DNA of 64,000 nucleotides. Origin: Candidatus Latescibacterota bacterium (lineage in GTDB: Bacteria > Latescibacterota > UBA2968 > UBA8231). Location: positions 2,304,001 to 2,368,000 of the forward strand of contig CBDETK010000013.1 of assembly GCA_965242865.1 (NCBI GenBank), written 5' to 3'. The position numbers and the translations under genes were made by a program. The notes below the pieces were generated by a model. The model saw nothing but the letters and a program-made list of their open reading frames with translations, was not told where the DNA came from and did not search any database. Every line of letters starts with the position of its first letter. Positions within the stretch are counted from its first letter, which is position 1. This document shows positions 17,915 to 35,596 of the stretch, piece after piece.

Positions 17915-18679
17915 CTAGGACACATGCAATTGCGGCTTAATCGAACCTCTGTCAGTGACCGTGTGAGCACTCGGCAACTCAACATCATCGGCATTTCCAA
18001 GTATAATCCGTCCGACGATCTCTCGGAGTTGCTGCTTAATTCCTTCATAGTGAGGTTCACCACGGATATGGTTTATGGTATTCTTAAAGTATTCGTCCGA
18101 AGTCAAAATGTAATCCGCCTGAACTACTAATGCATTCGCACAAATAATACTATCCATGGCATCCATATAAACCAGCCCGTTGATATCCTTTGCCAACTCT
18201 AGTACATCGCTCGCTTGGTCGCTTCGGCTCGTCTTGACAGCGATACCAAGCTTTCCTAACACGGAGGTTAGCCCGTCAATTCTATCCTTGATAGCCGCCA
18301 AGTCGGTGGGGCCGACTCGATCACGAATCTCTTTTTCCCTAAAGCGCGACCAAGTTCTATCTGACACTCCTTCTTTAGCCGCACTCAGAATTGCTTTTCC
18401 TTTTGCTCTTCCAGTGAGTAATTCAAGCTCTGAAATGGGTGCATATTGGACTTGTACATCCTGCTTCAAAAGGAAATCGATAGTTTCTAGACCCTTTTTA
18501 AGACTTTTTTGTAGATTGGCTTCAGAAAGGTTGTTTACCTTCGCTATCGCTGCCTCCTTTGTTTTGAGGTCTTGAGGATATAGATCATCCTTCTTGGCGT
18601 ATTCTAGGTAAATTTCGATGTAATGTAGTGTATTTGTGTCTAGAAACGCTACTTTCCGAAAGAATTGCGTCTTTTTCAT
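17915..18679 (-). CDS. PIN-domain-like protein
   Basis: AFLDTNTL, SELE, MDSII and ILTSD supply the four acidic PIN positions; ATGA overlap with the ATPase. Confidence 0.7.
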   Translation of the reverse strand: MKKTQFFRKVAFLDTNTLHYIEIYLEYAKKDDLYPQDLKTKEAAIAKVNNLSEANLQKSLKKGLETIDFLLKQDVQVQYAPISELELLTGRAKGKAILSAAKEGVSDRTWSRFREKEIRDRVGPTDLAAIKDRIDGLTSVLGKLGIAVKTSRSDQASDVLELAKDINGLVYMDAMDSIICANALVVQADYILTSDEYFKNTINHIRGEPHYEGIKQQLREIVGRIILGNADDVELPSAHTVTDRGSIKPQLHVS

Positions 18680-19860
18680 AGCTTTGTATTCTCACTGATA
18701 GTCGAGTTGGGATAAAGTTCCTCTTCGATTTTGTGAAGATAATTCTCGGTAAATGGTAGCTGCACGTCAGAATCCGCTTTTGCAATCGCTCGGAAACATG
18801 TCTTTACGAGCCGTCTAGGATTCGAGTACGTGTTGGGACGGAAGACAATATCATCAGGAAACGGGAAAAGGTCTCCCATTGATTCGTCCTGTTCTCCTGA
18901 CCTAGCAGCAGCTATCCGTGACCTCATTAAGGCTAACGCTTCCTCACTCGCTAGAGACTCGATATCTAATATTTGGTCAGAAATGCGCTCAATTAACGAG
19001 GGCTCAAGCTCCTTGGTCGTCTCATAAGCATCGGGGGTCATCGACAAGACGATCCAGAAGTCAACCTGCTCGCTTTGAGCGAGGTTAATCAAACGTTTCA
19101 GTGTCGCCAAGTAATCGTGTGCCGCCCGTTTAGTAAGCCGCTTCTGAAGACCTATTTCCTCGAATTCGTCTATAAGAAACGCAATGGCTTTAGCACTCGT
19201 CCCTTGTGAGATCGTTTTCAGTATTGCGCGAAAGTAAGGTGCTTCCTCGCCTTCCGGGACCATGCTGCCCGTCTGTCGGGGTATGAAATCCCGATATTCA
19301 AAATATGGTTTCTTTACGATCTCAGTAACGATTCTGGTGAGACAGTTTGCGATTTGTTCGTCGGTCGTGACATCCGCATTTATAATGGCCTCTTGGAGGT
19401 GGCTTGTCATATCCTGTTGTCGCCTCTGACGGAACGAACGAAACAAGTACTCCTCATAACCTTCTTGAAAAAGGTTTCCCTGATATGAATTAGACACATG
19501 TGAGCTAGCAAGCTCCCAGATGAATTTGGCAAAATCCTTACGGCCGACAGTGCGCAACAATGTATTAGCAAGATCATAAAATTGCACTCCTGGGTTATCA
19601 AAATAGAACGACTTGATTTGGCGGTTTGGAAAGATCTCGCTATGAAGCCATTGCAGGAGGCAGGTCTTTCCGGTACCGTACTCGCCGACGATGACGATGG
19701 CCTTTACTCCTTGGCCCATCTGATGGACATCGAGAAGTCCCATCGTATCTTCGCCTAGTTTATTCGGAGGAGCCAGCGTACCCAAGAGAGGTGCGCCTGT
19801 CGCAGAAGGCTCGAAAGGATTGGAATCAAGCCGGAGTTTTTGCAGGATGTTGGGTATCAT
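18676..19860 (-). CDS. P-loop (AAA-type) ATPase of unknown family
   Basis: Walker A GEYGTGKT; Walker B FLIDEFEE; N-terminal LxLxxNPF; NPRRL sensor-like motif. Confidence 0.85.
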   Translation of the reverse strand: MIPNILQKLRLDSNPFEPSATGAPLLGTLAPPNKLGEDTMGLLDVHQMGQGVKAIVIVGEYGTGKTCLLQWLHSEIFPNRQIKSFYFDNPGVQFYDLANTLLRTVGRKDFAKFIWELASSHVSNSYQGNLFQEGYEEYLFRSFRQRRQQDMTSHLQEAIINADVTTDEQIANCLTRIVTEIVKKPYFEYRDFIPRQTGSMVPEGEEAPYFRAILKTISQGTSAKAIAFLIDEFEEIGLQKRLTKRAAHDYLATLKRLINLAQSEQVDFWIVLSMTPDAYETTKELEPSLIERISDQILDIESLASEEALALMRSRIAAARSGEQDESMGDLFPFPDDIVFRPNTYSNPRRLVKTCFRAIAKADSDVQLPFTENYLHKIEEELYPNSTISENTKL

Positions 19861-20905
19861 AATCTGTGAACTCCATAGGTTTGAGAGTTATGTCTCTGTG
19901 TATGCGAATATGGGAAATATAGGGACCATTTGAAGCCTTATAATATCTTTTCAGCTCTAGATTTTCCCTTAGCGGAGATGTCGTCGTCAGCGTCGCGAGG
20001 GCACGAGAAGTGGGAATCAGGAAGATGTGATGGGGCCACTCGTGAATTAGCCAGTCGATCGCACTATAGAGCACACGGATCGGTTGTCTTTGTTCTTCGC
20101 AGCAACATGCGATGAGATCAAAAACAGAGAATGACGTCCATTCACCGGGCGTACGTAGTGAAAGAATGAAGCGTATAGTCTGAAGTACAGCGGTATCGAT
20201 TCCTTTCTCGGATAAGTTAGTCTGCAACACGGGAAACATGATCGTACTACCGCCAGATCGTTGACAGTATTCATCAATGAGCCCTAACTCATCACGCGCC
20301 CAGTAGCGTACACCATATAAAATCGCAGCCACGCTTGCGTGGGACGTAAGCCACGCTGTACGTCCCGTTATGCTATTTTGAAAAATGACCTCTCTCGTGT
20401 GAGAGGAACGGGGTCGGAACCACTTAACGGGAACACCGTTTTGCCGGAAACTGGAAACTGAATCGAAACTTGCGTCCGAGGACATAAAAAGATCAAAAAA
20501 AAGTGATCTGCATTGTTCGTTTTTCAAAACTAGTGCTGCAAAAGGGGCTTTCGCGGCATCACATAGCACCTGATCTCCGTTGGCTGGGATCGGCTGACGT
20601 AGCAGTTTGCAGACAATAGGATCATCATAGTTGACACGCAATATCCGTCCATCTCTTTGGAGTACGCCTAAGTGAATCAAGGTATTCCGATAGTGGTAAA
20701 GAGTGGTAGGTGCAGGAGGTGAACTACGCCGATTAATCGGGATGTTATTCTCCTGAACCAACTTATTGATCTCACTAGCCATTAGCCCGTTCGGAAAGTC
20801 TGCTACGGCTTTCAAGATACGATGTAGTCCAGCAAACGAGATGGTATGCATCCAGTATTCGCTCTGTCTCACGGGATATGGATGTTTATTGACCATTGTT
20901 TTCAT
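19826..20905 (-). CDS. Hypothetical protein, probable multi-winged-helix DNA-binding protein
   Basis: 359-aa ORF overlapping both hsdS and the ATPase; GLMASEI...TLYHYRNTLIHLGVLQRDG and YWARDELGLID resemble wHTH recognition helices. Confidence 0.7.
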   Translation of the reverse strand: MKTMVNKHPYPVRQSEYWMHTISFAGLHRILKAVADFPNGLMASEINKLVQENNIPINRRSSPPAPTTLYHYRNTLIHLGVLQRDGRILRVNYDDPIVCKLLRQPIPANGDQVLCDAAKAPFAALVLKNEQCRSLFFDLFMSSDASFDSVSSFRQNGVPVKWFRPRSSHTREVIFQNSITGRTAWLTSHASVAAILYGVRYWARDELGLIDEYCQRSGGSTIMFPVLQTNLSEKGIDTAVLQTIRFILSLRTPGEWTSFSVFDLIACCCEEQRQPIRVLYSAIDWLIHEWPHHIFLIPTSRALATLTTTSPLRENLELKRYYKASNGPYISHIRIHRDITLKPMEFTDYDTQHPAKTPA

Positions 20906-22175
20906 TTAGCTCTCGCTTTAGAGACGAATCGTAAACCAACGATAGGTCGAGAACATCAACCCGCATCTCCCACGTCATCAGCTTGTACAGCAGCGTCTTG
21001 AACAAATCGTCGAGCACCGCTCGTTTTCTTCGGTGTAAGTCAATTTTGCGGTCAATAGCGGCGAGAATGGCGACGATTTCGCATTGTTCATTCAAGGACG
21101 GCACCGGAACTAACTGTTCCTTGACAATCCGATCCGTCACTGCCGGGTAGCTAGCGCCGGTCTCAATCATAGCGAGTTGTTGAACAAACTGCTCCCGTTG
21201 GACGACATAGCGGATGAAGTCTTCAACGGCCCTCTTAGGCTCCCGACGCAGGACACAGAACGCTGTAGAACAGACTTGATTATTGAGTTGTTCGGGAACG
21301 ACAGCAGTACGCAACAAAGTTGGCCGGACCGTAGCGAAAATCACATCACCCTTCAAGATGCGTTTCCGGGCTCGTCCGGGTGCTTTTCTGAGTTTGAAAC
21401 GGGACGTTGACTCGATCTGTAAGGACTCTCGGGATACCGAAGAGACATCTACATACTCAATTACTCTCTCGCCTTCACGCCGAAGGTCAACTGTTTCTGT
21501 TTTTTTGCAGAGCGTTCCGAGCGGTCTCAAATTCCAACTCTCCGGCACTGAGCCAATCTCGGTTTCCCTCTGCGCTTCGCCCCTGAGTCCACGACTGAAG
21601 AGCGTCTGCATCGCGGCGCGTTTCAAATCCCGCGCAAGTTCGACGCTCTGAGCATGGGTCTTGATCGCTTTCCGAATCCGCGAAAGGGCGGCGACTATCG
21701 CTAGCTGCTCGTCGATCGTTGGCTGCGGGACCTCAAGCCCTGCCAATCGACTACGCGACAGGTTTGGAATCGTGGTCTTGTTGCCCGCGCCTTCGAATAT
21801 GCCAAGCTGTGTAAAGGCGGATTGCAGGAAGTACACGTAAAAACGCGGCTCGACCTCCTCGACAATGGGCCGCAGCCGATGTAAGTGATTCTGAAACGAC
21901 ATGGTTTCGACTGCGCCGTTCCAGATTGCGGCCCGCCCGATCTCGCCGCCCTCGCACACAAGCAGGTCGCCCCGGCACAACAGCTTGGCTCGTAGCTCGC
22001 GGTCTGGAATCGCCATCTCATCTACAGACGACAAGTCAATTTCATCCCAGAGGACATTCGATGTCCGAAGGAATGGAGTCTTGTCAGGACCGTTGCGAGC
22101 GGCGGCGGACATGGTTTTTCCCGCGCCAATTTCGAATAGCTCCCCGAGAGGACGCCATGTCCACGCTCCATTCAT
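20886..22175 (-). CDS. hsdS: Type I RM specificity subunit S
   Basis: Two TRDs separated by conserved regions (PTIDEQLAIV; LKRAAMQTLFSRGLRGE; PSLNEQCEIV...LFKTLLYKLMT). Confidence 0.95.
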   Translation of the reverse strand: MNGAWTWRPLGELFEIGAGKTMSAAARNGPDKTPFLRTSNVLWDEIDLSSVDEMAIPDRELRAKLLCRGDLLVCEGGEIGRAAIWNGAVETMSFQNHLHRLRPIVEEVEPRFYVYFLQSAFTQLGIFEGAGNKTTIPNLSRSRLAGLEVPQPTIDEQLAIVAALSRIRKAIKTHAQSVELARDLKRAAMQTLFSRGLRGEAQRETEIGSVPESWNLRPLGTLCKKTETVDLRREGERVIEYVDVSSVSRESLQIESTSRFKLRKAPGRARKRILKGDVIFATVRPTLLRTAVVPEQLNNQVCSTAFCVLRREPKRAVEDFIRYVVQREQFVQQLAMIETGASYPAVTDRIVKEQLVPVPSLNEQCEIVAILAAIDRKIDLHRRKRAVLDDLFKTLLYKLMTWEMRVDVLDLSLVYDSSLKRELNENNGQ

Positions 22176-22552
22176 TGCAGGCGCACCAACCCCTTGAGCC
22201 GCACGGCTGGCAACCTCTTCAACCGCTGATTCAGTGGGTCCACTTCTATACCGACGGATTCCAACGCCGTCACGCCCAGCAATGGCTCGGCGTCGGCCTC
22301 GCCGAATAGGATCGTCCCGCCAACGATCTCGCCCATAAACTCAATGTCAGCAGTGGTCACGTCCAGAACAAGGTCGCTCCCATCGGCCAGTTGGTATATC
22401 CTGCGGCCCTTCGGCTCCAGGCCGATGGCCTCTAGGTAAGGCCGGGGCACCAGGGAATCGGTGGCCCCTGTATCAACCAGAAACAGACCCTCCCAAAACC
22501 GGCCCGGCTGTGCGGGGTTGGTAATCCTAGCCGTTACATGCGTCGCTCCCAT
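22172..22552 (-). CDS. Clan AA (retropepsin-like, AF_0612-type) aspartic protease
   Basis: FLVDTGAT catalytic motif; LADG; PLLGVTALE; GGAGG RBS. Confidence 0.9.
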   Translation of the reverse strand: MGATHVTARITNPAQPGRFWEGLFLVDTGATDSLVPRPYLEAIGLEPKGRRIYQLADGSDLVLDVTTADIEFMGEIVGGTILFGEADAEPLLGVTALESVGIEVDPLNQRLKRLPAVRLKGLVRLQ

Positions 22553-22587
22553 GCTTTCCTACCTCCTTCGATCCTGAATATCCGCGT

Positions 22588-24408
22588 CTATTGCAATCGT
22601 GCCAACATATCTGATAGGTGTGCATCCACCTCTCGGGCCTCTTCATCGAGGCACTGCATCTCGGTAATGATCTCCGAGATCGGCCGTTGAACTACCTCGT
22701 CAGCCTGCCCTACCCACCGGCTCGGACTCAAGTTGTAGTCCGCCTGCTCCGCCTGCTCTCGCGTAATCACCGCAATCTCGCCCTCCACCGGCTCACCCTT
22801 CACAAATGCCGTTGCAATCAGCCGAATGTCCTCTTGTGGAATGAAGTTCTTGGGCCGTCCCTTGCGAACTCGCCGACTGGCGTTGAGCAGCACGATCTTG
22901 CCCTGCCGGGCCTCTGGCTTGCGCTTCGACAACACCACGACCACGCCAGCGGCACTGGTGTTGTAGAACAGGTTGTCGGGCAACAGGATCACGCCGTCGA
23001 TCAAGTCGCGGTCCACGAACCATTTGCGGATGTTGCGTTCCCGGTCCTCGTGTTTGGCGCCTGCGCCGCGCGTCACCGCGCCGGTGTCGAGCACGACCGC
23101 GGCCCGCCCGCGCTCGTTCAGGCAGGCGAGCGTGTACTGAAGCCAAGCCCAATCGCCCTTGCCGGTGGTGACGCCGCCTTGGGGGCGGAAGCGATCAAAG
23201 GGGTCGTTGGCGAAGAGCGCCGGGCTGAATGGCTGATTCCACATGGGATTGGCGACCACGATGTCGTGGGTGGAAATCTGGCCAGTCGCGGTCTTGAACT
23301 TGGGATTGATCATAGTGTCGCCGCGCTCAATTGCCATCTCCATGTCGTGGATGATCCCGTTCATGCAGGCGACGGCGTAGCTCTCGGCTTGCAGTTCTTG
23401 GCCGTAGAGCTTGAGCGGTACGCGGCTGGTGGGGTCGAGCTCGCGGGCGACGAGTTGGAGCTTGACGAGCAAACCTGCCGAGCCGCAGGCGTAGTCGTGG
23501 CAATCCTCGCCGGGCCTCGGGCGCATGAGGTGCGCCATGAGGAAGCCGACTTCAGTGGGCGTGAAGAACTCGCCGGCACTTTGGCCCGAGCCTTCGGCGA
23601 ACTTGCGCAGCAGATACTCGTAGGCGCGGCCGAGGAAGTCGGGCTGCACATCGGCGAGGCCGAGCCGGTAGCGCGGGTCGGAAAAAGTCTCGATGACTTG
23701 GGTGAGCTTGGCCGGATTGATGTCGCGCTCGCCATTGCGCTCGGAGGCAAAATCGACAAAATCGATGACCCCCGAAAGCGAGGGATTCTGCCGCACGACC
23801 CCCCGCACGGCCCGTGTCAAATGCTCGCCGACATCTCGCGGCCGCATGCTGAGCGACCACTCGTAACCTTCGCGACCGCTGATGACGCCCCAACGAGCTT
23901 CCGGCGGCAGGTAGAATCGCAGCAGGGCGTGGTCGCTCTCGGCGATTTCCAGCGCAGTCGCCCGATCCCCGAACTCCTCGGCCAAGCGTTCAATCTCGTC
24001 GTCGAACACATCGGATAATCGCTTGAGGAATAGAAGCGGCAGCAGGTAGTCCTTGAATTTTGCCGCATCCTGCTCGCCGCGAATGGAGCAGGCCGCGTCC
24101 CACAGCATCTGTTCCATGGGCTTGGTCGAAGGCACGGCCGCACGGCCTTTGCCTGTCCGTCGCCGCGTCGCCCGCACGGCGGCTTCGGTTGCAGCCAACT
24201 CCATTGTGTCGATGCCCGATTCGGTAGCGAGTGCAGCGATGGCTTCTTGCGCGGCCTTCTGTGGCTTGATTGCGCCGCCTTCCCAGCGGTTGATGCTAGC
24301 GAAAGAGACGCCAAGCCGCTCGGCAAGCTGCTCTTGGGTGAGGTCGAGGCGGACGCGGATGGCGCGTAATGCAGCCGGAATATCGGATAATTCTGCTATA
24401 TTTGACAT
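22588..24408 (-). CDS. hsdM: Type I RM methyltransferase subunit M with N-terminal XRE HTH
   Basis: [24 protein letters not shown]; [10 protein letters not shown]; GEFFTP; DYACGSAG; motif IV variant NPMW. Confidence 0.93.
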
Positions 24409-24444
24409 AGATGTCAATATAACAGAATACCGATTGCACGTCAA
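24402..24444 (-). promoter_or_regulatory. Sigma70 promoter for hsdM (likely leaderless) with overlapping palindromic operator
   Basis: Minus strand TTGACG(24444-39)-17 nt-TATATT(24421-16), ATG 7 nt later; palindrome TTGACAT-AG-ATGTCAA at 24402-24417. Confidence 0.7.
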
Positions 24445-24462
24445 TAGTGCTGCATTGTTTTT

Positions 24463-24497
24463 GTAGTATATTCGGATGTACATTCCGAATATACTAC
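24463..24497. repeat. Perfect 14-bp inverted repeat at the RM island boundary
   Basis: GTAGTATATTCGGA-tgtacat-TCCGAATATACTAC. Confidence 0.85.
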
Positions 24498-29271: not shown

Positions 29272-29387
29272 TATAGCCGTCCTAAATGACTTGAAAGCAT
29301 GGAATGTTCAGCGGCCCTGTTTTTTGCATATAGGAATCATTCCCGCGCACGCGGGAATCCAGTCTTGAACGATGTAGGATTACTATA
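29272..29387 (+). mobile_element. 116-bp MITE with TATAG ends and internal dRS3-like palindrome
   Basis: Imperfect TIRs TATAGCCGTCCTAAATGA / (rc) TATAGTAATCCTACATCG; internal ATTCCCGCGCACGCGGGAAT; second copy at 61668-61804. Confidence 0.8.
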
Positions 29388-29404
29388 TCTCTGTGTCGGA
29401 TTTC

Positions 29405-29656
29405 TCAACGGCGTGCGTTGAGCGAGAGCATCTCCCACTCATCCCCGAAATCAGTATGAACGATGTCGCCGTGGATAGTCATCCGGCCACGCAGTTTGCC
29501 GAGTGCTCTGCTTGAGTGGCTTTCTTCGCGGCAGGGGTTGACCGTGGCTATGGGCCGTTTGTTCAGGGTCACGAGGAGTGGTTCCCCCGTCTGTTGCACC
29601 TTCTTCAATTCGTCGATGCACTTCGCCTTGAATTCGGAAATACTCATTTCCTTCAT
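29405..29656 (-). CDS. Phd/YefM-family antitoxin (orphan)
   Basis: MSISEFKAKC..L..V..TGEPLLVT...PIA; no toxin downstream, a MITE follows. Confidence 0.88.
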   Translation of the reverse strand: MKEMSISEFKAKCIDELKKVQQTGEPLLVTLNKRPIATVNPCREESHSSRALGKLRGRMTIHGDIVHTDFGDEWEMLSLNARR

Positions 29657-29754: not shown

Positions 29755-30570
29755 TTACTCGCAGACCATGCCGTCGCCATCGCCGTCGCGCATGAACGGA
29801 TACGCCGGATGGTTGCGCGATACCGGCGCGATGGCGTGGCGGCGGGCCTCCGCGCACGTGATGCGGCCGTTGCCGTTGTCGTCCCACAGGCTAAGCGCGT
29901 CGATCTCCGAAGGCATAGGCGGCGGTTCCTCGGGTTCAACAGCCGCACCCTCCGGCCCGATCATGGCCGTAGAATGGCAGGCGGCCAACACGCGCTCTAA
30001 GGCGTCGGCTTCGCGGCGGTCGATGGTGAGGTGGTACTTGCGGCGCACCGCGACGACGCGGTCGGCAAACCAACATTGGTTCAGCCGCGGTAGCCATTCG
30101 GCCGCGTCTTGGGCGCATTTGCCACCCGTTTTACAGCCGTTTACCTCCGGGCTGGCCAAGGTCAGGTTGAGCAGATCGGCCGCAAAGGCGCGTCGCGTCG
30201 AATCCGGGGCCGCGCACAGGCCGCTGTCGTGGGCTTCGGACATGGCGACGATATGCTCAATGTGCGTCTGCTTCAGGTCCGTAAAAACCTGCCCGGTATA
30301 GGGGCTGTAGATACGGCCGAGCGTTTTGACGATGCGCGGCTCAAGCGATTGCGCGTAGGGATAGTCGCGCCGGCTGTAAGGGGCGCAACGTTGCTCGGGC
30401 GCGACCGTTAGCCCGCGCCATGTTTCGGCTTGGGCGCGCTTTAGCCGGTCATTTTCCTCTTTCAGTTGGACGTACTGCTGTACAAAGAAAAGGCCGCAGA
30501 CGACGGCAATAAACGCGCCAATCATCAACCAAACCCTAGCCTTCTTGTGACGCGAGTGATTAGTCGGCAT
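29755..30570 (-). CDS. Membrane-anchored HNH/DUF1524-like nuclease with C-terminal excalibur-type Ca-binding domain
   Basis: N-terminal TM; HIEHIVA.SEAHDSG...NLTLASPEVN...AEWLP; TCAEAR...RDGDGDGMVCE. Confidence 0.8.
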   Translation of the reverse strand: MPTNHSRHKKARVWLMIGAFIAVVCGLFFVQQYVQLKEENDRLKRAQAETWRGLTVAPEQRCAPYSRRDYPYAQSLEPRIVKTLGRIYSPYTGQVFTDLKQTHIEHIVAMSEAHDSGLCAAPDSTRRAFAADLLNLTLASPEVNGCKTGGKCAQDAAEWLPRLNQCWFADRVVAVRRKYHLTIDRREADALERVLAACHSTAMIGPEGAAVEPEEPPPMPSEIDALSLWDDNGNGRITCAEARRHAIAPVSRNHPAYPFMRDGDGDGMVCE

Positions 30571-30600
30571 TGCAAGGGCTTCTGTTTTAGGTATGGCCTA

Positions 30601-30686
30601 AGAGCCTGCACGAAAACTATCTGAGGTTGAGTCAAATGGATAAGGAAGTGTAGGGCGTCAAGACCTTCTTATCAACAGGAAATCAA
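30601..30686 (-). mobile_element. Non-autonomous derivative of the IS5-like element at 9021
   Basis: Reverse complement aligns with about 9037-9103 (ctgttgataa.aaggtcttg...cctacact...catttgac); terminal AGAGCCTGCACGAAAA resembles AGAGCGTATACGAAAA. Confidence 0.7.
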
Positions 30687-32545
30687 TCCGATTCGTCGAG
30701 CGCAGCCGCACCCTCTGGCCCGATCAGGGCCGTAGAATGGCAGGCGGCCAACACGCGCTCTAAGGCGTCGGCTTCTCGGCGGTCGATGGTGAGGTGGTAC
30801 TTGCGGCGCACCGCAACGACGCGGTCGGCAAACCAGCATTGGTTCAGCCGCGGTAGCCATTCGGCCGCGTCATAGGCGCATTTGCCGCCCGGTTTACATC
30901 CGCTTACTTCGGGGCTGGCCAAGGTCAGGTTCAGCAGATCGGCCGCAAAGGCGCGGCGGGTCTCAGCGGTGGCCGCGCATAGACCGCTGTCGTGGGCTTC
31001 GGATGTGGCGACGATGCGATTGATGTGAGTCTGCTTTAGGTCCGCGAAGACTTGCCCGGTATAGGGGCTATAGATGCTACCGAGCGTTTTGACGATGCGC
31101 GGCTCAAGCGATTGCGACGAGTAGGGATAGTCGCGTCGTCGGTTGTAGGGAGCACAGCGTTGCTCGGGCGCGACCGTTAGTCCACGCCATGTTCCGGCAG
31201 GTGGAGGAGACTGCTGCGGAGTGCCGGGATCGGGTTTCGCACGAGATTGTGTCGTCTCCGGCGGCGCATTGCTTGAAGGCGACGGTTTCGCAGGGACTTG
31301 GCGTTGCTCGGTTTCAGGCGGTGTGCTACTCGGCGGTGCCGGTTGCTCAGATTGTGTCGTCTCCGGCGGCGCATTGCTTGAAGGCGGCGGTTTCACAGGG
31401 GCTTGGCGTTGCTCGGTTTCAGGCGGTGTGTTGCTTGGCGGCGCCGGTTGCTCAGACTGTGTCGTCTCCGGTGGCGCATTGCTTGAAGGTGGCGGTTTCA
31501 CAGGGATTTGGCGTTGCTCGGTTTCAGGCAGCGCATTGCTTGAAGACGATGGTTGCTCAGACTGTGTCGTCTCCGGCGGCGCACTGCTTGAAGGCGATGG
31601 TTTCACAGGGATTTGGCGTTGCTCGGTTTCAGGCGGCGCATTGCCTGAAGGCGATGGTTGCTCAGATTGTGTCGTCTCCGGCGGCGCACTGCTTGAAGGC
31701 GGCGGTTTCACAGGGACTTGGCGTTGCTCGGTTTCAGGCGGTGTGCTGCTTGGCGGCGACGGTTGCTCAGATGGCTGCTTTGACGTTTGAAGAGAGAAGA
31801 AGGCCGCAGATGACGCGGCGACAATAAGGGCGACAATAAGTACGCCTACGCCGATCACAATCCGAGGCCACTTCTTCTTATCTGTATTGACAGGTGGCTT
31901 TCTGTCAGATGGCATTTCCGGATCGGAATGAATTTCTGTCGTCTGAGGTCTCTCGCCATTCTTTATAGTAATCTCGAGCCTTTCCGGGTCTATGGGCGGT
32001 TGGGCCCACGTCCTTTCCTTCTGTGGTAAGTAGGAGGCGTGTTTTCGCCTGAACTCAATGTCGGTCATCGTGCCTTTGGCTTGATTGCAACGGCGGCAGG
32101 CTAGCTGAACATTCCGGACGTTGTCCTCGCCACCTCGAACCTTCGGAATCATGTGCTCGACTTGGAGCTCGTTGTACAAATAGTTGTTACCGCAGTAAAC
32201 GCACTTGCCTTGCTGCTTATCGAACAGCAGGCGTTTGTCCGCGGCTTTTGGGTCATTTTCCAGTAAAGCGGAGCGCTCGTCAAAGGTGTCGGCTCTGACC
32301 GGGTCATATCTACGGGTCTTCTGCTTCGCTTCCGCCGATTTCGATTCTCTACTGTGCGCTGCGTTGGCTTTCTTGTTGCACTCAATGCAGATCGAATTCT
32401 TTGCGTCTTTGTACACCACGCCGCACTGTGGGCACTTGTCAATAGTGCCTTTCCGTTTTTCCCGCCAGTGCTCAAGGCACAGGTAATGGTCTTCCCTTGG
32501 TAGTTTCTCGTTACAGAATTCCTTGTTGCAGAGATGCTGTTTCAT
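30683..32545 (-). CDS. Fusion protein: Cys/His Zn-finger + HNH endonuclease + TM helix + Pro/Ser repeat linker + degenerate DUF1524-like nuclease
   Basis: CVYC...EHMIPKVRGG...N...CRRCN..KG; IVIGVGVLIVALIVAASSAAFF; 5x35-aa repeats; C-terminal copy of the neighbour's nuclease domain. Confidence 0.85.
   Translation of the reverse strand: MKQHLCNKEFCNEKLPREDHYLCLEHWREKRKGTIDKCPQCGVVYKDAKNSICIECNKKANAAHSRESKSAEAKQKTRRYDPVRADTFDERSALLENDPKAADKRLLFDKQQGKCVYCGNNYLYNELQVEHMIPKVRGGEDNVRNVQLACRRCNQAKGTMTDIEFRRKHASYLPQKERTWAQPPIDPERLEITIKNGERPQTTEIHSDPEMPSDRKPPVNTDKKKWPRIVIGVGVLIVALIVAASSAAFFSLQTSKQPSEQPSPPSSTPPETEQRQVPVKPPPSSSAPPETTQSEQPSPSGNAPPETEQRQIPVKPSPSSSAPPETTQSEQPSSSSNALPETEQRQIPVKPPPSSNAPPETTQSEQPAPPSNTPPETEQRQAPVKPPPSSNAPPETTQSEQPAPPSSTPPETEQRQVPAKPSPSSNAPPETTQSRAKPDPGTPQQSPPPAGTWRGLTVAPEQRCAPYNRRRDYPYSSQSLEPRIVKTLGSIYSPYTGQVFADLKQTHINRIVATSEAHDSGLCAATAETRRAFAADLLNLTLASPEVSGCKPGGKCAYDAAEWLPRLNQCWFADRVVAVRRKYHLTIDRREADALERVLAACHSTALIGPEGAAALDESD
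31244..31768 (-). repeat. Five tandem 105-bp (35-aa) coding repeats
   Basis: EQPSPPSSTPPETEQRQVPVKPPPSSSAPPETTQS-like unit x5. Confidence 0.95.
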
Positions 32546-32770
32546 TTTTGCACTCCAGATTTAGGGCTTTATACTATCCTGAATCTTGTTGGCTGCCTGC
32601 TGCCACTATGGATACCGACAAGCTCAGTGTGCCCAACAAATTTTTGCGCTTTTAGGCTGGTGTATGAGATAGTTTGTAAAGATATAGGCGGGTCGCGTGT
32701 AGAGCAAAAGGGACAGAGGTGCATGGAAAAGGATACAGTGCTAGGGCACCGGGGACATAGATAGGGCGGA

Positions 32771-32786
32771 TGGCACGATCCTTGCA
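32771..32786 (+). promoter_or_regulatory. Sigma54 (-24/-12) promoter
   Basis: TGGCAC-GATCC-TTGCA, 25 nt upstream of ATG 32812, with an AGGAGG RBS in between. Confidence 0.8.
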
Positions 32787-32811
32787 TGAGGCTGTAAAAG
32801 GAGGACAGACC

Positions 32812-34365
32812 ATGTGGCGACTGTGGGTGTTGATATTGATCGGCCCGGTGTGGGCCGAGGAGGACTTGGGGGAGGAGGACGCGAGCTATTTAGAACAGCG
32901 GTTGGACGATTTGAAGGCGTTGGACGCGGCGGCCGTGCGGTGGCGGGTGCGCGGGGCCGAGATGGCTTGGGGGCAGTGGCAGTTGTACCAGCGAGTGGAG
33001 GTCGCGCCGGTCAGGGGCCAAGCGTTTTTTGGCTTGGTCGAGCGCGATCGCGGCGAAGCAAGCTGGAGCGACTTTAGGACGTTTTACTACGCAGTGCAGC
33101 GGGAGCAATCCGAATGGGTCGTCGGCGATCTGCGGCCCGGCACGGGCGCGGGCTTGGTGTTTGGGCGCAGCCGCCGCGGGAGCATCGCGCCGAGGATGCC
33201 AGCCGCAGACAGTCGGCGCTTGGGCTATCGCTCTAGCGGGGAAAATCACGCCCTGCGCGGCGCGGCGTGGCGCTACGAGGGCCGCGCATGGAGCGGAATG
33301 CTGCTCGGGGGGTGGACGCACCGGGACGGACGCTTGGACGAACAGGGCCGGGTGCGCTCCCTGCCCGAAAGCGGCTATCACGTAACCGCGACCGAGGTGG
33401 CCGGCCGCGACCTGCTCGGCATCCGGGCCGGCGGGGGCCGCCTGCACTGGCGGGGCGAGCATTGGCAGGGGGGCGCGACCGCGCTGGCCTTGGACTTTTC
33501 CCGCGACCTCGACTTGCGGCGGGGCGGGCGGACGCCTTGGGACTTTGTCGGCGACGCGCAGCGCATGGGGGCCGTGGATGTGCGCGTGGAGTGGGGCCGG
33601 GGCCGAGCGGCCTTGGAAGTGGCCAGCGATGGAGCAGGGCACTGGGGCATGGTGGGGGCGGTGCGGGTGCGGTACGGGGGCCTGCGGCTGCGGACGCTGG
33701 GCCGCTACTACGCGCCGGGGTTCCACAGCTTCTTTGGCGCGGCACCGGGAACCTCGGCCATGCAAAACGAACAGGGCGTCGTGGCCGAGGCCAGCGGGCG
33801 GGGCTGGCGTGCGTACGCGGATGTGTACCGCCGACCGGCCCGCTCCTACTTCATCCCCGTGCCGGCTACGTATGCCACTTGGGGGGCCGAGCTAAAGAGG
33901 CGGTTGGGCCGGCGCTGGGCCATGCGCGGACAGTGGCAAAGACGCCTGCGACCGCACTGGACGAGCGAGCGGTTGGTCCAAGAGCGCAGCCACAAGTGGC
34001 GGTTGGACTTGGAGCGGGGGGCTTGGCGCGGGCGCGGCGAGTGGGTGCGCTGGCAGCGGGCCGGGCGCGGCGAGTGGGGCCTGTTGGGCAGCGTGCGGTT
34101 TAAGACGCGCTGGCTGACCTTGCACCTGAGCCGCTACCGCACGGACTCGTACTGGACGCGGATCTACGAATACGAGGTCGATTTGCCCGGGGCCGTGAGC
34201 ATTCGCCCGCTCTACGGCGCGGGCTGGCGCGGGTACGCGCTCGTGGCGGTCGCCTATCGCGGCTGGCGCCTGAGCAGCCGCTACCGCATCCAGCACGACC
34301 AGCGGCTGCGGCACTACGGCGGCGTCCAGCTCGACTGGAGCCGCGGTCGTATTGACAACCGCTAG
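32812..34365 (+). CDS. Hypothetical exported protein, probable outer-membrane beta-barrel
   Basis: AGGAGG RBS; signal peptide; amphipathic Trp/Arg/Gly-rich strands; TDSYWTRIYEYE motif reminiscent of Bacteroidota HhH/ComEA-barrel proteins. Confidence 0.7.
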   Translation: MWRLWVLILIGPVWAEEDLGEEDASYLEQRLDDLKALDAAAVRWRVRGAEMAWGQWQLYQRVEVAPVRGQAFFGLVERDRGEASWSDFRTFYYAVQREQSEWVVGDLRPGTGAGLVFGRSRRGSIAPRMPAADSRRLGYRSSGENHALRGAAWRYEGRAWSGMLLGGWTHRDGRLDEQGRVRSLPESGYHVTATEVAGRDLLGIRAGGGRLHWRGEHWQGGATALALDFSRDLDLRRGGRTPWDFVGDAQRMGAVDVRVEWGRGRAALEVASDGAGHWGMVGAVRVRYGGLRLRTLGRYYAPGFHSFFGAAPGTSAMQNEQGVVAEASGRGWRAYADVYRRPARSYFIPVPATYATWGAELKRRLGRRWAMRGQWQRRLRPHWTSERLVQERSHKWRLDLERGAWRGRGEWVRWQRAGRGEWGLLGSVRFKTRWLTLHLSRYRTDSYWTRIYEYEVDLPGAVSIRPLYGAGWRGYALVAVAYRGWRLSSRYRIQHDQRLRHYGGVQLDWSRGRIDNR

Positions 34366-34432: not shown

Positions 34433-34982
34433 ATGGCCTGGCATTCGTCGATCAAACTGTATCCGTCCACACTCCGAGCGGTTCGGCTGTATTTTAACAT
34501 TGTGGTCCGAGCAGCCGTCTTGGCACTGATTTGGGGCGTTCTATTAGCTATCGGCACGGGGCTCAACTGGCTGATAGACTTCGCACTGGGAGCATTCGCT
34601 GCCTCTGAAAAGGTTAAAAGTATTTCGCTACAGATCTCTCTTGGGTACATTATCGCATTAGGAGTTGCAGCGACTTTGACCAGTCTGAAGGACGTGTGGG
34701 ATTTGACCCTCGCTAGCCTACGCAAGTCTTCCGCCGATGATTTGGGGCGTTCTATTAGCTATCGGCACGGGGCTCAACTGGCTGATAGACTTCGCACTGG
34801 GAGCATTCGCTGCCTCTGAAAAGGTTAAAAGTATTTCGCTACAGATCTCTCTTGGGTACATTATCGCATTAGGAGTTGCAGCGACTTTGACCAGTCTGAA
34901 GGACGTGTGGGATTTGACCCTCGCTAGCCTACGCAAGTCTTCCGCCGATGAACCGGACGATCGCGAGGAAGAGAAACCATGA
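34433..34982 (+). pseudogene. Small membrane-protein gene split by an internal 211-bp tandem duplication (ORFs 34433-34819 and 34737-34982)
   Basis: Removing one repeat copy gives a single ORF ending ...KSSADEPDDREEEKP with an ATGA overlap onto the next gene. Confidence 0.65.
34527..34951 (+). repeat. Exact 211-bp tandem duplication
   Basis: tgatttggggcgtt... starts at 34527 and 34738; TGA microhomology at the junctions. Confidence 0.95.
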
Positions 34983-35596
34983 AAAAAGCCCTTCTTCCCG
35001 TTGGCGATTTCAAGCTGGCAATCGCATATACCACGGCGTGGATGCTCGCGTTTTGGGCGGTAGAACATCCCATAGGCGATTGGGCGGTAACGGCTGTCGT
35101 TTTGTATGGTTTGCTATGGCTATCGAGAGAAGTCGTCTCCGTCTTGATACTATTTGTAGAAGAGCGCATGCAAGGGTACGCAAAGCGCGTCGTCCAAAAG
35201 GCCGGCGTTGAATTCTGCGTGGAATCACTCCCTGAATACAGCCTTCGGGACAAGTTGTTTTTTGCCGCTTACGTCTCGCTAGCGTGTTTTACCATCATCG
35301 GCCTCTCCCTGATCGTCGGGCTCCCTGCGATCCGTCTGTATGGACTTACTCCGCTTCCTGCTTTTTTTGTGTGGATAGCTTGGGGACTCTTTCTCGTCGG
35401 AGGAATCGGCGTGTCCCTGATATTGGGGATTGCAATGTGGCTGTTGTCTTCGGCCAACGCTGGAATCAACGCGACAATCGCCTCCCAACAAGCCTATGCC
35501 GCTGTCAACCGCAAACCGACCGAATTAGAATGGCGTCTATTGTTTTTGTACGTACTCCTGTTGTATCGCTTTCATCTGCAATTCGGTCGTCGCTAA
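34979..35596 (+). CDS. Hypothetical multi-pass membrane protein
   Basis: 205 aa, 4-5 hydrophobic segments; lower GC than flanks. Confidence 0.7.
   Translation: MKKALLPVGDFKLAIAYTTAWMLAFWAVEHPIGDWAVTAVVLYGLLWLSREVVSVLILFVEERMQGYAKRVVQKAGVEFCVESLPEYSLRDKLFFAAYVSLACFTIIGLSLIVGLPAIRLYGLTPLPAFFVWIAWGLFLVGGIGVSLILGIAMWLLSSANAGINATIASQQAYAAVNRKPTELEWRLLFLYVLLLYRFHLQFGRR

Follow-up and report, generated by a model that had tools for sequence, protein, structure and literature searches.

In a 64,000-nt stretch of the Candidatus Latescibacterota bacterium assembly GCA_965242865.1 (contig CBDETK010000013.1, positions 2,304,001 to 2,368,000; hereafter the window), a 620-residue open reading frame (ORF) joins a zinc-ribbon HNH nuclease head, through one transmembrane (TM) helix and a proline/serine-rich stalk, to a DUF1524 domain that, judged by its residues, is catalytically dead. 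The fusion is a real, lineage-specific mosaic gene. We give about an even chance to the reading that its product is a cytoplasmic nuclease tethered to the membrane, that the outer domain does not cut and probably binds DNA, and that the protein acts by placement and not by signalling. The features of the gene, in window coordinates, are as follows.

30683 to 32545, minus strand: fusion ORF, 620 aa, with GGAG 7 nt 5' of the ATG
32366 to 32545, minus strand: two Zn-ribbon-like Cys/His clusters, residues 1-60 (C6, C11, C23, H26; C38, C41, C53, C56)
32027 to 32245, minus strand: HNH core, residues 101-173, with Zn ligands C115, C118, C150 and C153 and residues E130-H131, N145 and N154 all present
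31862 to 31960, minus strand: predicted cytoplasmic linker, residues 196-228, the head-swap junction
31805 to 31861, minus strand: single TM helix, residues 229-247, the sole hydrophobic segment, N-in by charge
31193 to 31795, minus strand: Pro/Ser/Gln/Thr/Glu-rich stalk, residues 251-451, including a tandem repeat
30701 to 31192, minus strand: DUF1524 (His-Me) domain without Excalibur, judged catalytically dead, residues 452-615
31016 to 31021, minus strand: codons N509-R510, in place of the family E/D-H (general-base His)
30902 to 30904, minus strand: codon S548, in place of the family metal-binding Asn

An earlier, sequence-only reading of this DNA had described the 620-residue ORF and the one downstream of it, the HNH motif, a single TM helix and five 35-residue repeats, all of which were found again by Pfam, hydrophobicity analysis and Tandem Repeats Finder. 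In the head, HNH_5 matches residues 115-168 (E 2.5e-13, 50.2 bits against a cutoff of 27.5), and an HNH profile scores 47.7 bits against a cutoff of 21.4 (Pfam; PF01844 / PF14279). Residues 1-60 give a weak treble-clef Pfam match, under cutoff, and their Cys/His columns are invariant in an alignment of 13 family members. In this alignment the fusion retains 66/66 invariant Zn-HNH family columns, including the Zn ligands, E130-H131, N145 and N154. The same Cys/His and HNH motifs occur in free-standing Zn-ribbon HNH proteins of ~200 aa from the same genus and from Dehalococcoidia metagenome-assembled genomes (L003, L007, L032-L035), which are 54-74% identical to residues 4-195 and, unlike the fusion, end soon after 'PIDPE' with a basic tail and no TM helix. 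The head shows 64% identity to the free-standing copy in its own genome (L003) and 73% to a non-syntenic additional copy of the HNH in a relative (L007/L032), which adjoins DUF4411-like and ImmA-like ORFs (identified by eye). Base composition sets the two ends of the gene apart, with a GC fraction of 0.52 in the HNH head and 0.50 in the linker and TM helix against 0.63 in the outer domain and the downstream gene.

Around the TM segment, six Lys/Arg residues fall in the 15 residues on the N-terminal side and one on the C side. The positive-inside rule, the one criterion applied, predicts an N-in/C-out topology, with the HNH and the dead domain across the membrane from one another; the internal HNH and external nuclease proposed earlier are supported by that rule alone. 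If the host is a diderm, 'outside' would be the periplasm or envelope. No convincing Shine-Dalgarno sequence lies upstream of M211, an internal start that would yield a separate TM-stalk-domain protein. The tandem repeat spans 31244-31772, with a 105-nt unit in 5.0 copies at 90% matches (Tandem Repeats Finder), which encodes five units of 35 aa with a high content of P, S, Q, T and E, and the stalk of ~200 residues is probably disordered.

The outer domain is best read against the gene that follows it:

29755 to 30570, minus strand: resident DUF1524-Excalibur gene, 271 aa (TM helix residues 13-31, DUF1524 residues 50-207, Excalibur residues 238-271)

This neighbour has a cytoplasmic tail of 12 residues ahead of its single helix, and it lacks a stalk. 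It matches GmrSD_C (DUF1524, PF07510) with 28.0 bits against a cutoff of 23 and the Ca-binding domain Excalibur (PF05901) with 34.2 bits; Pfam found no Excalibur in the fusion and, at E<=0.01, no GmrSD_C in its C-terminal domain, so that the DUF1524 membership of the latter rests on homology to the neighbour. That homology is extensive, with 148/166 residues identical (89%, E 2e-104). The claimed similarity at the DNA level also held, at 92% mean column identity over two aligned blocks (30703-31002 and 31137-31198 against 29940-30239 and 30368-30429). As had been noted, HIEHIVA of the neighbour is HINRIVA in the fusion and Excalibur is missing: the fusion terminates with 'ALDESD*', whereas the neighbour runs on into Excalibur. 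We found in addition that EVNG of the neighbour is EVSG in the fusion.

We aligned the domain with 120 other family domains, comprising the neighbour and 119 database proteins. Position 510, Arg in the fusion, is His in 119 of the 120; position 509, Asn in the fusion, is Glu in 114 and Asp in 5; and position 548, Ser in the fusion, is Asn in 118. The combination of N, R and S recurs in one of these domains only, that of the metagenome protein P0001, and all remaining highly conserved family residues are kept in the fusion. By these replacements of the near-invariant general-base His and metal-binding Asn, the outer domain is judged to be catalytically dead, in agreement with the earlier proposal. 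Its neighbour retains E105-H106, N135 and N144, a motif that agrees with 120 homologues, and from this intact motif it would be an active nuclease, as had also been supposed. In an AlphaFold model of the fusion domain (pLDDT 88.6), residues 507-510 lie on a strand and residue 548 lies on a short helix after the next strand, a modelled layout that matches a beta-beta-alpha-Me finger with a long omega-loop. The closest structural matches of the model are Vvn, Endonuclease I and Cas9 HNH, all weak (E 0.4 or worse); that to 1ouo (E 0.41, TM score 0.36) is below significance and a lead only. Vvn and Endonuclease I are likewise extracytoplasmic His-Me nucleases with a long omega-loop, but they are soluble and active and give no significant sequence or fold score against the fusion domain.

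Contigs from public sequencing runs, aligned to 30400-32900, bear on the reality of the ORF. The runs that hold the sequence are labelled as sponge metagenomes, and no RNA run is listed among them. Two runs of one study, X1 and X2, possibly the source of the assembly, show 0 differences. In X5, from an independent second study, a 12.8-kb contig over 31743-32900 covers the stalk start, TM helix, HNH and upstream gene with 22 substitutions and no indel, and a 316-nt contig over 30785-31100 shows 5 differences; the latter cannot encode E-H, because E-H needs 4 changes beyond the 3 listed elsewhere. Other X5 contigs run from the end of the stalk into the domain (31087-31293) and from the stop codon into the neighbour (30400-30774), and X6, from a third study, contains pieces without differences. 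Between them, public contigs from the three studies cover each junction, and no alternative junction was seen. Across the repeat array itself (31273-31718) no public record reaches from one side to the other, which leaves the number of units unconfirmed, and it is here that an assembly artefact, in which two stalk-repeat genes were collapsed into one ORF, would find room. We consider such an artefact highly improbable: the window lies within a multi-megabase contig, X1, X2 and X5 contain one TM-to-stalk and one stalk-to-domain junction with no loose ends, any whole number of 105-nt units preserves the frame, and the other kind of head known on this stalk, a PD-(D/E)xK-like domain, occurs nowhere in this assembly.

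The latter head is carried by P0001, a 539-aa metagenome protein on a 2.6-kb contig. Its outer domain is 96% identical to that of the fusion, and the two proteins have in common the N, R and S replacements, the 'ALDESD' end, the stalk units and a juxtamembrane 'SD.KP.VN.DKKK'. Its cytoplasmic head, PD-(D/E)xK-like, is unrelated to the HNH of the fusion. Similarity of the fusion to its HNH relatives stops near 'PIDPE' (~195), and similarity to P0001 begins at 'SDRKPPVNTDKKK' (~212). Since P0001 already shows this dead motif and end under a different head, the dead lineage existed before the HNH was joined to it, and the low-GC HNH head took the place of another, nuclease-like one. On the question, raised earlier, of whether the change from E-H to N-R is conserved, P0001 shares N, R and S and no other of the 120 domains does.

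Divergence between the fusion domain and its neighbour points the same way, with a synonymous divergence (dS) of 0.33, a non-synonymous divergence (dN) of 0.051 and an omega of 0.15, the last in line with the 0.10-0.20 of most pairs of active copies. Since a dS of 0.33 equals the divergence between orthologues of two species, the copies are not recent, and the 'recent chance duplication' offered as an alternative by the sequence-only reading is not supported as worded, both on this value and on the greater age of the dead lineage. Unique changes assigned by parsimony number 11 synonymous and 9 non-synonymous on the fusion branch, 13 and 4 on the neighbour branch and 8 and 3 on that of the relative G046; 4 of the 9 lie in codons 509, 510 and 548. 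On these small counts the 11:9 split departs from neutrality (P=0.0035) and shows no significant difference from the split on the active branches (Fisher P=0.22). Between this genome and X5, where only listed differences could be compared and contigs may mix strains, the dead domain has 0 non-synonymous and 5 synonymous differences, distinct from the head (Fisher P=0.03). Purifying selection on the dead domain is indicated by the omega value and the branch counts. The 7 substitutions between the fusion and P0001, of which 1 falls on a column conserved at >=95% against 2.3 expected, carry no information either way.

The simplest history has three steps. The resident gene would have been duplicated, or a sister allele acquired; catalysis and Excalibur would then have been lost and the stalk expanded; and finally the head would have been exchanged in frame for a mobile-type, low-GC Zn-ribbon/HNH. 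The ancestral gene before this last step would have resembled P0001, with a PD-(D/E)xK-like head, juxtamembrane segment, TM helix, Pro/Ser stalk and already-dead DUF1524 without Excalibur.

Heads on membrane anchors are found in other combinations. P0002 and P0004 join the PD-(D/E)xK-like head and a TM helix to a motif-active DUF1524-Excalibur, and P0011 and P0121 consist of a Zn-HNH, linker, TM helix and Ser/Pro tail. The search for the architecture in related genomes that the sequence-only reading had proposed gave a divided answer: HNH with DUF1524 was found in this lineage only, so that the uniqueness which was to count against that reading was found in part, and an analogous architecture with a different head recurs. 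A DUF1524 match is present in 20/31 genus genomes, where the surrounding open frames are 195-493 aa long, except for 625 aa here. As a separate observation, P0005 carries a degenerate half-domain ahead of an intact DUF1524 domain.

The head of P0001, P0002 and P0004 belongs to phrog_21138 (function unknown) and to no Pfam family. The family comprises 3051 cluster representatives (E<=0.001), mostly free-standing proteins of ~190 aa; in 79 sequences P50-D51-F52 is invariant and V68, E69 and K71 are conserved at >=90%. Its fold matches are nearly all to PD-(D/E)xK nucleases, but they are weak (Foldseek best E 0.04, VIA Z <=5.3), below significance and leads only, and sequence searches of the PDB returned no match for this head or for the neighbour. 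The family, marked by its PDF...EVK motif (L019 1462-2052; P0122-P0270), occurs elsewhere in fusions to RuvB, Rep3, DnaG-DnaB-binding, Pox_D5-like, HTH or ankyrin domains. It may represent a phage-type PD-(D/E)xK nuclease or resolvase that has yet to be described, and we flag it as a large phage-type family for which Pfam has no entry.

In the reading that we prefer, the product would cross the inner membrane once, with the HNH on the cytoplasmic side and the dead domain held outside at the end of a long, flexible stalk. Selection would maintain this outer domain for binding without cutting, with DNA as the most likely ligand. PMC5714182 describes inactive His-Me domains that serve in binding, the eukaryotic Smad MH1 and the ENPP nuclease-like domain; there the catalytic His is lost and the fold and binding role are retained, but these domains are unrelated in sequence to that of the fusion, for which binding is only putative. 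The HNH would be tethered at the inner membrane face, away from the chromosome, and because the tether keeps it there it would meet only membrane-located, that is entering, DNA, while the neighbouring enzyme, presumed active, would degrade DNA outside.

Such coupling by placement, with no transmitted signal, would resemble SNIPE. Experiments on SNIPE (PMC13190303) show that its membrane tether holds the nuclease away from the chromosome and allows it to cleave phage DNA on entry, and that spatial restriction suffices for self/non-self discrimination. SNIPE also has a single-pass anchor, a cytoplasmic nuclease positioned at the inner membrane and an 'adapter' region that is variable and extracytoplasmic, but it is N-out, with DUF4041 and a C-terminal GIY-YIG, whereas the fusion is N-in by charge bias, with an HNH inside and a dead nuclease domain outside. 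Neither Pfam nor PADLOC matched DUF4041 or GIY-YIG in the fusion. By this comparison the fusion is not a SNIPE homologue, and the likeness is an analogy of function only.

A transmembrane receptor, as the sequence-only reading proposed, would work differently, with DNA binding outside switching on the HNH inside. The topology and the dead, binding-type domain fit this model, and ligand-induced clustering can drive signalling by single-pass receptors. Conformational signalling is unlikely, however, because a single helix is followed by a Pro/Ser stalk of ~200 residues, probably disordered, between helix and domain, and Pfam recognises no dimerisation or signalling module. The exchange of the head for an unrelated fold with the rest unchanged also speaks against an allosteric coupling to which the parts are co-adapted. 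Co-localisation offers a more economical mechanism, and the receptor has in our view little chance of being correct.

Several results weigh against the tethered-nuclease reading that we prefer. HNH and DUF1524 occur together in no gene of 30 other genus genomes and in no frame among 40 relatives; in a collection of 5.8 billion proteins, 2 of 166 candidates (P0011 and P0121) carry the HNH head on a protein of 341-1085 aa, neither with DUF1524; and the dead motif, searched as a degenerate DNA pattern, gave 0 loci in genome contigs and 0 in metagenome contigs. Related head-bearing genes look unstable: the fused frame of G005 is interrupted by a TGA, the head of G043/P0003 is truncated with PDF changed to PAF, and P0272 lacks DUF1524, its head and part of the TM helix being joined directly to Excalibur. 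The fusion head itself differs at 5 of 15 nearly invariant columns of the 13-member Zn-HNH alignment, and its 9 non-synonymous and 5 synonymous differences among those listed against X5 are indistinguishable from neutral (P=0.26). Among defence families, PADLOC matched only generic HNH (Cas9 HNH, PtuB).

The fusion could instead be a non-adaptive by-product, in which a mobile HNH replaced the 5' part of a P0001-like gene and the frame stayed open by chance; only the outer pseudo-nuclease would then have a selected role, and the head would be a passenger heading for decay. We regard this as the main rival, though an unlikely one. It would account for a combination restricted to one lineage, for the decay of sister fusions and for the non-synonymous excess of the head relative to the outer domain, and both kinds of head are usually free-standing genes of ~190-200 aa that are low in GC and have affinities to phage or mobile genes. 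It must contend with the presence of every invariant HNH-family residue, an ORF that is open in two strains and the emergence of membrane-tethered nuclease heads in at least three architectures, and a free active HNH on a membrane anchor is not obviously neutral.

We also weighed a pseudoenzyme partnership, in which the dead domain would act on the active neighbour by pairing with it, inhibiting it or positioning it, and the head would play no part. The genes lie next to each other in the same orientation with 112 bp between them, their domains are paralogous at the identity given above, and regulation of active enzymes by dead paralogues is a common theme. The contig of P0001 is so short (2.6 kb) that its genomic neighbour is not seen, which counts against this option. 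A complex prediction for the dead domain with the neighbour ectodomain scored 0.00 and was counted neither way. We think such a partnership improbable.

The fusion gene lies as a cassette between the resident motif-intact DUF1524-Excalibur gene and a divergent neighbour:

30598 to 32606, no strand: 2.0-kb insertion, found in this genome alone of 31 in the genus and missing at the same locus in relatives (bounds set against L020 and L021)
32770 to 34365, plus strand: divergent conserved neighbour, 531 aa, no Pfam family, flanking the nuclease gene in every relative examined

Across 13 genus genomes (loci L019-L031) the order of the locus is constant, with a glyoxalase, a TIM-barrel gene, the DUF1524-Excalibur gene and the divergent 531-aa gene, and sometimes a Phd-like gene between the TIM-barrel and DUF1524-Excalibur genes; this genome alone has a second gene at the locus. 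Here, an 83-aa Phd/YefM-like ORF lies at 29405-29656 on the minus strand (Pfam 23 bits, under cutoff), and no toxin gene follows. In G019 such an ORF is followed by a 138-aa ORF (L008 294-710), PIN-like by eye, in whose place this genome has a dispersed repeat of ~120 nt (29272-29389). This repeat has 41 matches in this genome at 78-100% identity and resembles a MITE/REP-type element, and the relatives G046 and G019 hold a copy at another intergenic position of the same locus.

Beyond the locus, a small membrane-protein ORF occurs twice at 34433-35000, in overlapping frames (34433-34819 and 34737-34982) with a common stretch of ~70 aa, in a low-GC patch (0.51-0.53) that suggests a duplication in place or a further insertion. 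At 18676-24483 there are a type I restriction-modification set (HsdS 20886-22175; HsdM with an N-terminal HTH 22588-24483) and an AAA/NACHT-like ATPase (18676-19860); they lie ~6 kb from the fusion locus and are separated from it by housekeeping genes (gatB, peptidase S9). Elsewhere on the contig, a third DUF1524 paralogue (L004 1396-1830; 144 aa, ~50% identical) has an intact 'EIEHIVA' motif and no Excalibur, and adjoins an ankyrin-repeat ORF.

Membrane-anchored DUF1524 and Excalibur proteins are listed in PMC5714182 as putative extracellular nucleases of His-Me finger group 3. The neighbour is a typical member, and the C-terminal domain of the fusion is paralogous to it, both having an N-terminal anchor and an extracytoplasmic His-Me domain. 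The fusion departs from the type in lacking the catalytic His, the Asn and Excalibur, and in having a 200-residue stalk and a complete second nuclease on the cytoplasmic side. The DUF1524 of GmrSD and type IV restriction systems falls in the same Pfam family as the neighbour, PF07510, but there it is cytoplasmic and coupled to DUF262 (PMC5714182), and no DUF262 is present here. Our literature search turned up only the His-Me classification paper and found no description of a cytoplasmic nuclease head on a DUF1524-Excalibur-type anchor, nor of a dead bacterial DUF1524 ectodomain.

Taking these observations further, we tentatively propose, and ourselves doubt, that sponge-symbiont Latescibacterota may have modular inner-membrane 'gate' nucleases with swappable PD-(D/E)xK-like or Zn-ribbon HNH heads, one helix, a proline-rich stalk and a periplasmic His-Me domain that is either active or a DNA-binding decoy. 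The outer domain would find envelope DNA, the head would cut entering DNA and the active paralogue would clear the outside. If so, this would be a logic of defence or uptake control parallel to that of SNIPE and built from unrelated parts. Should the narrower reading of a tethered head be true, the fusion would represent a second, independently built case of location-based self/non-self discrimination at the membrane, the SNIPE principle, and a bacterial nuclease domain converted to a selected non-catalytic binder. Even on a cautious reading, the gene documents the shuffling of nuclease modules onto one membrane anchor in uncultured symbionts.

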